From: Alphaproteobacteria bacterium
Lineage (GTDB): Bacteria; Pseudomonadota; Alphaproteobacteria; Rs-D84
Length of the DNA stretch: 42,621 bases
NCBI GenBank assembly: GCA_017513285.1
Contig: JAFXGD010000033.1
Coordinates: forward strand, 1 to 42,621
Direction of reading: 5' to 3'
Every line of letters starts with the position of its first letter. Positions within the stretch are counted from its first letter, which is position 1. The notes below the pieces were generated by a model. It made no database searches. It had not been told where the DNA came from and saw only the letters and a list, made by a program, of their open reading frames with translations. The position numbers were made by a program, and so were the translations under genes. Below are positions 1 to 2,846 of this stretch, piece after piece.

Positions 1-226
1 CGCCCACCGGTGTATTTTGCCAATCCAACGGTGTATCGGCATTGGGGATGATTTCCAATTCGATTTCTTTGGCCAATATATTTTCTGTTGGTTCTTCTTG
101 TTTGTTTCCCAACAGCAAAAACATCAGTATCAGCACAACAATAAAAGCAATTGCCAACAACAGCCATTGAACCTGTTTTGGTGTATTTTTTTTGAAATCC
201 GCTAATTGTTGTTTAAAGTTACTCAT
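1..226 (-). CDS. Partial (runs off window) bitopic membrane protein, probable VirB10/TrbI of the T4SS cluster
   Basis: Not in ORF track. ATG at 226-224 preceded by GGGAGA; reads MSNFKQQLADFKKNTPKQVQWLLLAIAFIVVLILMFLLLGNKQEEPTEN... open to base 1. One N-terminal TM helix, directly downstream of virB8-virB9. VirB10 identity rests on synteny and topology only. Confidence 0.55.
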   Translation of the reverse strand, partial: MSNFKQQLADFKKNTPKQVQWLLLAIAFIVVLILMFLLLGNKQEEPTENILAKEIELEIIPNADTPLDWQNTPVG

Positions 227-269
227 TCTCCCAACCCCGACTGGTAAAAATTACATGTATGCGTATAAA

Positions 270-1835
270 TTATTGTATACGCACAACGTTGCACGGTGCA
301 TCTCCACCGGTTTGCTTAATCAATTTATTGCACAACGTCTGCGCTTCATCGATTGTGGCAATTGGCCCGATACGCAATCTGTATAAACTTGCAGTAGATG
401 CACCTTCACCCAAATCGCCGACGCCTTGTGCGTCAATTGCATAGAATACTTTATCTTCATATGGGTCTAACAGGCCACGTGCATCGGTTCCCGAAAAGCG
501 CGCCAATAAATTTGCCCAATATTTTTCCAATGCATCTGTTGATGTGTCCGAATATAATTCGACGGCGACGCCGCTTTGGTTGCTGGCGATTACCGGTATA
601 TTATTCTGTGGCAGGTATGCGCCGGCGGTATTGCGTTCTTGGGGCAACATGTTAATTACACTGCCCGAACCATTGGTTGGCATTTGGGCCGGTATTTGTG
701 TTGGCATACCGTATCCGGCGGGCATATAGTATCCTGCCCCTGTCATTGGATTAACGGTTGCTTGATTGCCCATAAATACGGGTGTCCCGGTATAGCCGGC
801 GCCCATGCTCATTGCGGCCATGCTGTCTGTATATGCGATATTGTTTAACGATTGTCCCGACAGCATGCTTTGTGCGACATTTGCTTCGGCCAACGCCATA
901 ACCGATGCGGTATCTGCGATTAAGAATGGTTTTTCACGTTTTTTGATACATACAATTCTTTGACCGCTGCGCAAAACCATATCGCCAACGGCTTCGACGA
1001 TTAACAGTCGGCCGTCTTCACCATCTGTACGAAAACCGACGGGGGATTCGCCACCTTCGACCAACAAAGATACAACGGGTCTTTGTGTCATAGAAATAAC
1101 TTTATCCCCAAAGTCGATATATGTAAATATGCGGTCACGCCAAACACGTTCCGGCGCAATTACATAGTCGTCCGGATTTGGAACATAAATATCCAAATCA
1201 AAGCGGAATTCAGACGGATCAATTTTCATTGATTTAATCCAACCGTAATCTTCACCATCGACACCAACTGTAACGGGGCCACTGGATTTCTTTGTAAAGA
1301 TAGAACCTGCACCACCGCCGGCCTTGGTGGCGGCACCTGCGCCTGCGATTGCGGGGGCGCCCCTGTCCAACACCACATCTACCTGAGAGTATGTAATTTC
1401 ACTGGCGTTGGCGGGTTCAGCCCTTAAATAAAAGATATATCGGTTACCAGAATTACCTGTAACAATCATATTTGTGTCCGAACCAAAGTTATCTACGGCC
1501 GGACTGATGAACATGGTTTTGTCGCCTTGGGTTGCGTCAACGACAAATTGACTCTGGTCACCAATTTGAATGTCGGCAATTTGTTCGCCCATTGGCAAAT
1601 TAACCATTGTTAACATTCCATTTCGTAATTTAATTGGTAATACCGCCCCCTGTGACCACGACAGTTGGGCGTATCCTGGCTTAATACTGCCACTGGCCAT
1701 ATTGGCGGTTGGGTTGTCCCATGCGTATTGCACACCATTGAAACTGTCGGTGTTTGCATTGACAGACACGCATGTCAATATGCCTGCAACAGCCACTGCA
1801 TAAACGTTGCCTTTAAATACTTTTGCCCAATTCAT
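270..1835 (-). CDS. virB9: VirB9/TrbG-family T4SS outer-membrane core protein with C-terminal SPOR-like domain
   Basis: Signal peptide; VirB9-type segments (TMVNLPMGEQI, TNMIVTGNSGNRYIFYL, IAPERVWRDRIFTYIDF, VGFRTDG..LLIVEAVGDMVLRSGQRIVCI); Met/Gly/Pro-rich linker; C-terminal YRLRIGPIATIDEAQTLCNKL..C matching the SPOR pattern; AAGGA RBS. Confidence 0.8.
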   Translation of the reverse strand: MNWAKVFKGNVYAVAVAGILTCVSVNANTDSFNGVQYAWDNPTANMASGSIKPGYAQLSWSQGAVLPIKLRNGMLTMVNLPMGEQIADIQIGDQSQFVVDATQGDKTMFISPAVDNFGSDTNMIVTGNSGNRYIFYLRAEPANASEITYSQVDVVLDRGAPAIAGAGAATKAGGGAGSIFTKKSSGPVTVGVDGEDYGWIKSMKIDPSEFRFDLDIYVPNPDDYVIAPERVWRDRIFTYIDFGDKVISMTQRPVVSLLVEGGESPVGFRTDGEDGRLLIVEAVGDMVLRSGQRIVCIKKREKPFLIADTASVMALAEANVAQSMLSGQSLNNIAYTDSMAAMSMGAGYTGTPVFMGNQATVNPMTGAGYYMPAGYGMPTQIPAQMPTNGSGSVINMLPQERNTAGAYLPQNNIPVIASNQSGVAVELYSDTSTDALEKYWANLLARFSGTDARGLLDPYEDKVFYAIDAQGVGDLGEGASTASLYRLRIGPIATIDEAQTLCNKLIKQTGGDAPCNVVRIQ

Positions 1836-1877: not shown

Positions 1878-2546
1878 TTATTCCATGTCCAGTGGATCTG
1901 TCCCGCCTTCTACAACTTTGTATTGAACCACCTTTAACCCCAGTGGGTTTTCCAATCTGTTTTTCCATTTTACAGTTGTGTTGTCTGTTGCGATATCTAT
2001 ATGCAGTTTGTATGGTGTGTTGGTTGTTTGGCCAAAGCGGTCTGTACAAACATTTTCAATGGCGACCTGATATCTTTCTTGGTTTTTGGCTTTGATGTCC
2101 ATGGTTAACTGCTGTACAGATAATATTTTAACAACGCATGTTTTTTCCGGGGTTTTATTGCCCATATATTTTCTGAATGCACTGGTTTTAGAGAAGGCAT
2201 TATACACCTTGTCGTCGGACCACATACGTATTGCGCCATTGTCGGAATTCCACTTTTTCTCCATTGCGTTTTTATTTTGATATATTTCGTTTCTGTGTTG
2301 AATATACTCACGCACAAAGGCATTTTTATAATCACTCAACATTGTGTCTGTTTTTGGGATATTGTTTGTCACCATGATATCTTCGTTGGTGCGATTTTTC
2401 ATTTGCAGAAAGAAAATCTGTGGTCTGTTCAATGGAAACATATTGTACACAGTCACCACCAAAATCCCCAGTGTTACCAACAATCCTGCCAAAACAAAAG
2501 TGGTAATTTTGGTCTGTAAAACATTGGGTTCTGTGCGTGTTGTCAC
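1878..2546 (-). CDS. virB8: VirB8-family T4SS inner-membrane protein
   Basis: Single N-terminal TM helix, FVREYIQHRNEIY helix and hallmark NPLGLKV near the C-terminus. Start re-called at GTG 2546 (AGGAGAGG RBS) rather than 2600. Confidence 0.8.
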   Translation of the reverse strand: MTTRTEPNVLQTKITTFVLAGLLVTLGILVVTVYNMFPLNRPQIFFLQMKNRTNEDIMVTNNIPKTDTMLSDYKNAFVREYIQHRNEIYQNKNAMEKKWNSDNGAIRMWSDDKVYNAFSKTSAFRKYMGNKTPEKTCVVKILSVQQLTMDIKAKNQERYQVAIENVCTDRFGQTTNTPYKLHIDIATDNTTVKWKNRLENPLGLKVVQYKVVEGGTDPLDME

Positions 2547-2570
2547 GGTGCCTCTCCTTCTAATAAAATG

Positions 2571-2600
2571 ATTGTAGAAAAAAATGCGCCCCCTGTGCAA
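2571..2600 (-). promoter_or_regulatory. Putative sigma70 promoter of the virB8-virB9-virB10 unit
   Basis: TTGCAC-18nt-TACAAT on the minus strand upstream of the virB8 RBS. Confidence 0.5.
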
Positions 2601-2772: not shown

Positions 2773-2846
2773 AGGGGCATAGTTCAACGGTAGAATATCG
2801 GTCTCCAAAACCGCGGATGAGGGTTCGATTCCTTCTGCCCCTGCCA
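2773..2846 (+). tRNA. trnW: tRNA-Trp (anticodon CCA), encoded 3' CCA
   Basis: Cloverleaf AGGGGCA/TGCCCCT, D arm GTTC/GAAT, anticodon arm TCGGT-CTCCAAA-ACCGC, T arm GAGGG-TTCGATT-CCTTC, discriminator G then CCA; canonical position before secE. Confidence 0.98.

Follow-up and report, generated by a model that had tools for sequence, protein, structure and literature searches.

A SPOR-like domain with an altered ligand face at the C-terminus of the sole VirB9 of a gut alphaproteobacterium (Rs-D84)

We examined a stretch of 42,621 nucleotides from an Alphaproteobacteria bacterium of the order Rs-D84 (assembly GCA_017513285.1, contig JAFXGD010000033.1, positions 1 to 42,621 of the forward strand; hereafter the window), the start of which is also the start of the contig, C27 of the assembly in our numbering. 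Close to this end, on the minus strand, lies virB9, a gene for a component of a type IV secretion system (T4SS), as one ATG-started frame (270-1835) of 521 amino acids (aa). By homology and predicted fold, its product is a VirB9 ring subunit extended by a flexible spacer with a SPOR-fold module at the end (Table 1). A previous reading of the letters alone (the original prediction) had proposed here a fusion of VirB9 with a SPOR-like domain that binds septal peptidoglycan.

Table 1. Position of virB9, of its predicted parts and of neighbouring features in the window (pLDDT, predicted local distance difference test; L075, a related complete chromosome).
Feature	Position	Strand	Remarks
Next gene, 5' end; virB10 homologue by position	2..226	-	downstream, cut by the contig start; order as in L075
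virB9, whole gene with SPOR-like tail	270..1835	-	521 codons and stop codon (270-272)
C-terminal SPOR-like domain, aa 422-521	273..572	-	Cys pair C502/C515; Glu426 at the SPOR Gln position; Arg486/Arg488 at the positions of RlpA Arg309/Arg311
Tether, aa 304-419	579..926	-	Ala/Gly/Met/Asn/Pro-rich, few charges; predicted disordered except for a low-confidence helix (309-323)
VirB9 C-terminal beta-sandwich, aa 206-299	939..1220	-	part of the O-layer in solved systems; AlphaFold and Foldseek
Gly/Ala-rich linker between both VirB9 domains, aa 161-197	1245..1355	-	predicted disordered, pLDDT <50
VirB9 N-terminal beta-sandwich, aa 50-156	1368..1688	-	part of the I-layer in solved systems; block pLDDT 75-92
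N-terminal hydrophobic helix, aa 1-27	1755..1835	-	helix 3-27 in the AlphaFold model; presumed Sec signal
virB8	1878..2600	-	directly upstream, same orientation; Pfam PF04335, 5.1e-13
tRNA-Trp (CCA)	2773-2846	+	between virB8 and the nusG-rplK-rplA-rplJ-rplL-rpoB block

The Pfam profile CagX/VirB9 (PF03524) matched aa 57-299 of the protein with 80.8 bits against a cut-off of 34.2 (E 1.6e-22). This was the sole CagX match in the whole genome (window 939-1667), and all 41 aligned relatives matched the same profile. The cut-off of the P-type conjugative VirB9 equivalog, TIGR02781, was missed by far (53.6 versus 217.7 bits). By these profile scores the 521-aa protein is a divergent VirB9, distinct from the conjugative-plasmid equivalog. 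A full-length AlphaFold model, built from an alignment of 41 sequences, contained two sandwich domains in the part up to about aa 300, where a complete VirB9-like region had been claimed. When the model was compared with the PDB by Foldseek, the listed ranks 1-20 (E ≤1.7e-4) were all VirB9-family ring chains, led by Xanthomonas citri VirB9 (6gyb_B, E 5e-16) and R388 TrwF (8rt6_B, E 5.2e-16), and followed by DotH, TraO and CagX. In particular, the predicted N-terminal sandwich matched the N-terminal domain of R388 TrwF (7o3t_B) with a template modelling (TM) score by target of 0.78 and a root-mean-square deviation (rmsd) of 2.6, while the predicted C-terminal sandwich matched the C-terminal domain of TrwF (7o3j_B), TraO (3jqo_B), 2ofq (TM 0.79) and CagX (5h3v). 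When the full-length profile was searched against PDB sequences, the VirB9 matches were only weak (6gyb, E 0.0035; TrwF, E 0.061) and were accompanied by low-complexity alpha-synuclein noise.

The protein thus shares with the core-complex subunits VirB9, TraO, TrwF and CagX of type IVA systems (6gyb, 7o3j/7o3t/8rt6, 3jqo, 2ofq, 5h3v) two beta-sandwiches in the same order, the CagX Pfam match and the virB8-virB9-virB10 gene order. The solved VirB9 and TrwF, however, are 255 and 266 aa long and end after the second sandwich without an extra domain, in line with what had been stated for canonical VirB9, whereas the Rs-D84 VirB9 carries in addition a tether of 116 aa and a SPOR-like domain of 100 aa. 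A further difference from the solved VirB9 systems is that the gene is chromosomal, exists in a single copy and has its companion T4SS genes dispersed. The tether is a low-confidence stretch of the model, and the long Met/Gly/Pro/Ala-rich linker of the original prediction was recovered in its composition (A 17, G 12, M 11, N 11 and P 9, with 5 charged residues out of 116). Beyond it, the full-length model has a compact C-terminal domain (aa 422-520) with pLDDT values mostly of 75-91. Across the 271 complete family members, the spacer measured 47-179 aa (median 106), and the SPOR-like domain ended at the last residue in 268 and at the last but one in the other 3.

The terminal domain was assigned to SPOR from several kinds of comparison. 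Pfam SPOR (PF05036) matched aa 482-508 with 22.6 bits against a cut-off of 21, over positions 41-66 of the 76 positions of the profile; the genome-wide Pfam scan scored the same site with 25 bits. SPOR was matched at E ≤0.01 by 38 out of 41 diverse family members (best 2.2e-6), and some relatives fell under the cut-off (17.9 and 18.6 bits). A phmmer search with the last 125 aa against 1.84 billion representative proteins returned 24 matches at E ≤1e-3, and 17 of these were passed through Pfam: 7 contained CagX, 4 were short fragments with SPOR and 6 were bona fide multi-SPOR proteins (SPOR 71-109 bits; phmmer E 6.9e-6 to 7.1e-4). Finally, hhalign of 23 VirB9 tails with 12 canonical SPOR domains, including the three of the host genome itself, gave a probability of 97.9% (E 5e-13) over 79 columns that span the whole domain.

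The predicted model of the domain (mean pLDDT 73.8) has the order beta-alpha-beta-beta-alpha-beta. Foldseek with the isolated domain model placed RlpA SPOR first and second (E 1.7e-3 and 4.9e-3); as no domain match reached E ≤0.001, we used the wide search of VIA-align. Just two of 48,161 chains had Z ≥8, namely 6ozd_B (Z 10.3) and 6i0n_A (Z 9.1), the latter being the RlpA SPOR domain with bound denuded glycan (rmsd 2.3, 77/77 residues), and the other SPOR structures CwlC, DedD and DamX had Z values of 6.5, 5.4 and 5.1, respectively. The region of 6ozd_B that was matched (residues 82-166) is a domain of an uncharacterised exported protein of Burkholderia pseudomallei. With the full-length model, the RlpA SPOR domain appeared at Foldseek rank 27, where it matched the tail. 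The PDB sequence search with the 116-aa tail gave four chance matches to antibody chains only, and the feature search of the ESM Atlas put SPOR clusters at ranks 2 and 3 with 0.87, which is under the 0.9 line and was kept as a lead only.

Judged by homology and predicted fold, both of which are SPOR over the last 100 aa, the C-terminal domain is a true SPOR homologue, and this part of the original prediction stands (Pfam 22.6 bits, hhalign 97.9%, Z 9.1 to RlpA SPOR). The VirB9 tail has its fold in common with the SPOR domains of RlpA, FtsN, DamX, DedD and CwlC; the likeness to SPOR also includes whole-domain profile homology and the Arg pair of the lactyl-binding patch, and its Cys pair resembles that of the host genome's own SPOR protein on contig C61. 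Compared with canonical SPOR, the tail has insertions in two loops, one of about 5 aa and one of about 10 aa in the beta2-beta3 hairpin, and sits on a secretion-ring protein, whereas canonical SPOR domains sit on division or wall-hydrolase proteins.

An artefact would be either a chance Pfam match or a false fusion produced by misassembly or a missed stop codon, and the thin Pfam evidence (1.6 bits over the cut-off, 26 of 76 profile positions) speaks for it. Against it stand the hhalign probability, the fold match to RlpA SPOR, independent DNA and the uninterrupted frame, which 149 of 150 Rs-D84 genomes share with 18 from outside the order. Contigs assembled from DNA runs of three other studies span all 2.7 kb and contain only substitutions and one in-frame 3-base deletion, and one independent DNA contig extends beyond the window start. 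The virB9-SPOR frame is not an assembly accident, because it is uninterrupted both in 149 of the 150 order genomes and in the independent DNA contigs. We therefore rejected the artefact reading on the order-wide frame, the independent DNA, hhalign and the fold match, and consider it extremely improbable. The 3-base deletion, seen in one DNA run, lies at window position 1315, within the Gly/Ala-rich linker between the two VirB9 domains. Contigs of RNA libraries (one metatranscriptome run) cover only 1405-1900 and 2268-2462; the tail is uncovered, and carry-over of DNA is possible.

Next, we determined how widely the fused form occurs. Exactly one homologue, fused and present as the single VirB9, was found in 149 of the 150 sampled Rs-D84 genomes, which covered 22 out of 22 genera and all six families; the lone genome without a match is 72% complete. 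The match ran through residue 520 or 521 as a single piece in 140 of these genomes, and was split within one open frame (464-508 aa) in the other 9, the second piece being listed only for G148 and G006. A VirB9 match was present in 43 of 400 other genomes of the class. By comparison of open reading frames, the fused form occurred outside the order in 18 genomes from 11 families (genomes of 0.9-2.5 Mb, VirB9 of 485-605 aa). One outside family, which forms an order of its own, had the fused form in 27 of 28 genomes, and 11 genomes of that order also had an ordinary VirB9 without the domain (open frames of 290-399 aa). Seven of these 11 second copies of ordinary length had one in-frame TGA inside the match (G557:C29, G554:C88, G552:C64, G564:C8, G347:C2, G561:C41 and G563:C87), which could mark them as pseudogenes or as a recoded element.

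Among database proteins, the closest 120 were 492-524 aa long, with 71-98% identity and 94-100% query coverage. All named ones were called 'TrbG/VirB9 family P-type conjugative transfer protein', and a precomputed SPOR label was present in 3 of the 120. The named records among them belonged to Candidatus Enterousia and to unclassified alphaproteobacterial metagenome-assembled genomes from gut or faeces. A search from the outside-order clade yielded 1,254 proteins at E ≤1e-10 among 8,000 scored, and 19 of the best 120 were labelled CagX+SPOR.

The descent of the fusion was followed with a quick maximum-likelihood tree of the VirB9 core only, rooted at the midpoint. It had 53 rows: 42 locus-derived open reading frames, which were all those with enough core coverage, and 11 database proteins thinned by k-mers from the 259 whose core coverage was likewise sufficient. 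The 30 fused rows were all on one side of a branch with an SH-like approximate likelihood ratio (SH-aLRT) support of 98. One change of state suffices for the fusion on this tree, and none of 500 label shuffles matched that. The plain group closest to the fused group consisted of loci L124-L129 (G446, G302, G181, G432, G280 and G170), non-fused VirB9 relatives with open frames of 410-561 aa and Pro-rich tails without a SPOR-like domain.

We then focused on the residues that contact the glycan. In RlpA, Gln270 donates hydrogen bonds to the lactyl carboxylate of N-acetylmuramic acid (MurNAc) and to the N-acetyl group of N-acetylglucosamine (GlcNAc), Arg302, Arg309 and Arg311 hold the lactyl carboxylate, and Phe274 stacks on a sugar, according to PMC6895207; the same paper gives FtsN Gln251 and DamX Gln351 as equivalents of RlpA Gln270 and as required for septal localisation. 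Residues were counted over 293 VirB9-tail sequences, with positions matched by the hhalign register. The conserved strand-1 glycan-contact Gln of SPOR (RlpA Q270, FtsN Q251, DamX Q351) was not retained in the VirB9 tails: Glu426 aligns with RlpA Q270, and this position was Glu in 282 sequences, Gln in 3, Asp in 1 and a gap in 7. Similarly, Asp430 aligns with RlpA F274, a position with Asp in 196 sequences, Asn in 32, Gly in 22, His in 15 and Ser in 10. The tail thus has Glu for the SPOR Gln and Asp for the following Phe/Tyr of canonical SPOR, both of which the three ordinary SPOR domains of the host genome retain in the hhalign alignment.

Conserved among the 293 sequences were Arg486 (275), Arg488 (288), Trp440 (288) and both C502 and C515 (293 each). 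From the hhalign register and the alternating strand pattern, we infer that Arg486 and Arg488 are equivalent to RlpA R309 and R311. With Gln replaced by Glu, Phe replaced by Asp and the Arg pair kept, the domain is therefore homologous to SPOR and shares its fold, while its ligand face is altered in a conserved way. On these residues we would not class the VirB9 tail as a functional SPOR domain, in the sense of a denuded-glycan binder. The kept Arg pair, together with the replaced Gln and Phe contacts, suggests that the ligand is probably still a peptidoglycan glycan, and not necessarily the denuded septal form.

The flanking genes fit a T4SS operon and, as far as their homology tells, virB9 is encoded between virB8 and virB10. 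A VirB8 homologue precedes virB9 in 19 of 25 related loci (L105-L129) and in 18 of the 19 fusion-bearing ones, and gave no match in L111. The order in L075 is nusG, virB8, virB9 (507 aa) and virB10 (827 aa, L075:9525-12008 (+)). The only TrbI/VirB10 match of the host genome (G000:C3:17529-18134 (-)) lies near an end of contig C3, in an open frame of 776 aa, and the rest of the virB10 gene that is cut at the window start is probably on this contig of the same assembly. The VirB10 of the clade is unusually long: the TrbI domain (aa 406-613) is followed by about 200 residues with a Cys-rich end that has no Pfam match. In the loci from outside the order, no downstream homologue was detected by blastp with the Enterousia VirB10 as query; it is either too divergent there or cut off. 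Beyond virB8 come the tRNA-Trp and then the nusG-rpoB block, which puts the T4SS operon right next to a cluster of core housekeeping genes.

The host assembly is 1.10 Mb in size and 96% complete. Its T4SS genes are scattered, with VirB4 on contig C38, VirD4 on C9, a VirB11-like ATPase on C67 and virB8-9-10 on C27/C3. TrbL/VirB6 was not found with PF04610 in this 96%-complete genome, which does not show its absence. The wall-related genes comprised one Amidase_3, one SLT and three ordinary SPOR proteins. A genome analysis of Rs-D84 describes reduced genomes that have RodA, MreB, MrdA and other genes for rod shape and wall synthesis, and proposes that these bacteria depend on partner cells (PMC12306168); the terms secretion, T4SS and VirB are absent from its main text, to which the term search was confined.

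The reading that we favour, with a probability of roughly one half, is that this gene codes for the single VirB9 of a chromosomal, vertically inherited T4SS in a genome-reduced gut alphaproteobacterium (Candidatus Enterousia, Rs-D84), and that its SPOR-like tail serves as a built-in periplasmic wall anchor. From homology and predicted fold, the two VirB9 domains would build the core ring at the outer membrane together with VirB10. Each copy would then extend, from the end of its O-layer domain, an uncharged and disordered tether of about 115 residues into the periplasm, so that every ring subunit would hold one SPOR-fold module with the conserved Cys pair at the end of its tether. By binding to the glycan backbone of the peptidoglycan of their own cell, the modules may fasten the ring to the sacculus. 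This reading draws on the VirB9 identity, the SPOR homology, the presence of wall genes, the conservation of the module and the precedent of DotK/Dis1 described below. The kept Arg and Cys pairs fit a periplasmic glycan binder, and the Glu and Asp substitutions argue that its preferred ligand may not be simply a denuded septal strand.

Several points weigh against a wall anchor. The Pfam SPOR match covers only the second half of the domain and is marginal and partial, Foldseek with the domain model against the PDB gave no match at E ≤0.001, and the top VIA-align match of the model, 6ozd_B, is an uncharacterised exported protein. Glu in place of the key Gln and Asp in place of the stacking Phe could each weaken or alter glycan binding. 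Moreover, the anchoring role is deduced from homology and a predicted fold, the position of the VirB9 C-terminus relative to the wall in the ring is likewise deduced, and how many copies make up a ring is an assumption taken from other systems.

The same residues bear on two other readings of the tail. Under septal or new-pole targeting, the SPOR-like domains would recognise amidase-denuded glycan at the division site, so that new rings would be assembled at the septum, or be captured by it, and end at the new poles. According to bioRxiv 10.1101/2022.07.01.498525 and PMC6895207, every SPOR domain that has been characterised binds denuded glycans and localises to division sites, and the VirB9 tail has whole-domain SPOR homology, two Arg of the lactyl-binding patch and, in its host genome, one Amidase_3 gene. 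However, the Gln on which septal localisation of FtsN and DamX depends has become Glu in 282 of 293 tails and the stacking Phe of RlpA has become Asp in 196, while Gln and Phe/Tyr are both present in the host's three ordinary SPOR proteins. From the contacts given in PMC6895207, a Glu beside the lactyl carboxylate should disfavour the denuded form. We regard septal targeting through denuded glycan as possible and would give it about one chance in a handful.

The family-wide substitutions at two ligand-contact positions would be expected if the fold had been re-purposed, with the SPOR sheet docking a protein partner (e.g. another part of the T4SS) or a different glycan; a tail that passes through the outer membrane could even act like an exposed adhesin on the wall or surface of a partner cell. 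Only VirB9 proteins or their fragments were seen with the Glu variant (the three Gln cases among the 293 were not traced to named sequences, and the canonical multi-SPOR proteins in the alignment carry Gln). The VirB10 of the clade also has its unusual extension of about 200 aa, and partner-cell dependence has been proposed for Rs-D84 (PMC12306168). Even so, the tail conserves the Arg and Cys pairs and the SPOR sheet as a whole in the manner of glycan-binding SPOR domains, and no candidate partner was identified. In the solved rings (3jqo, 7o3j) the C-terminal domain of VirB9 lies under the outer membrane, which counts against an exposed tail. We regard a re-purposed fold as rather unlikely. 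With similarly low confidence we entertain a further reading, in which the VirB9-borne domain would be a re-tuned SPOR fold that reads another state of the wall (such as N-deacetylated or peptide-bearing strands, or a partner cell's wall) instead of denuded septal glycan, and would be a lineage-defining part of the one secretion machine that these genome-reduced, partner-dependent bacteria of the gut (Rs-D84 and allied alphaproteobacterial orders) use in their dealings with other cells.

To our knowledge, the usual depictions of minimal type IVA secretion systems show no wall-binding part. Such parts are already known in other envelope-spanning machines (DotK/Dis1, the AMIN domains of PilQ and the LysM domain of TsaP), and the AMIN domains of PilQ direct polar placement. 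The ring of the Legionella Dot/Icm system (type IVB) contains the OmpA-like wall-binding subunits DotK and Dis1 (Lpg0657), one per asymmetric unit (PMC9302130), and has, as would be the case here, wall-binding modules inside the outer-membrane complex of a T4SS. DotK and Dis1 are, however, separate auxiliary proteins, whereas the Rs-D84 module is SPOR-like and covalently fused to a core subunit of type IVA-like kind. In the secretins of type IVa pili, peptidoglycan-binding modules (PilQ AMIN, TsaP LysM) are likewise held on flexible links by a multimeric outer-membrane ring, and the LysM domain of TsaP is joined through unstructured residues to a ring-forming domain (bioRxiv 10.1101/2020.05.29.123786). 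These pili are unrelated to the Rs-D84 system in the machine itself, in the ring protein and in the folds that bind the wall.

What appears to be new is a SPOR-type module that is covalently attached to the core VirB9 of a type IVA-like system, is conserved in several orders and differs in its ligand face. By its own terms, the original prediction would have been refuted if VirB9-SPOR fusions were both common and already described. Common they proved to be, order-wide and in several orders; a description was not found, as our literature search, with subscription journals and supplementary files outside its reach, returned no paper on a VirB9-SPOR fusion among the titles listed, nor any that links RF32 Alphaproteobacteria with type IV secretion; the SPOR proteins in the papers on type IV secretion that were examined are unrelated ones. 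The fusion thus lies in the sequence databases annotated merely as 'TrbG/VirB9 family' and is apparently undescribed in print. A radiation of uncultured gut Alphaproteobacteria has built a module of wall-binding type into a core ring subunit and kept it (149 of 150 Rs-D84 genomes; 18 genomes from 11 families outside), and thereby provides a natural setting in which to ask whether it makes a difference to type IV secretion that the ring is tied to the wall or positioned by a wall cue. As a naturally occurring SPOR variant whose contact residues have changed, the tail is also of use for the study of ligand specificity, and it points to a secretion system that is conserved in organisms for which partner dependence has been proposed (PMC12306168).

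Some further features were observed at these loci. A hairpin of 10 pairs (window 258-285, minus strand) overlaps the stop codon of virB9 just before the start of the next gene. Promoter-like sites (9 against 8.5 expected from shuffles) and terminator-like sites (8 against 4.2) were not usefully above the shuffled sequences. Finally, in L118, a locus from another order with fused VirB9, two VirB8 paralogues precede virB9, and the gene just downstream (L118:4331-7399 (+)), cut by the end of the locus, codes for a protein that exceeds 1,023 aa and contains beta-flower repeats (PF21785, 173.5 bits).

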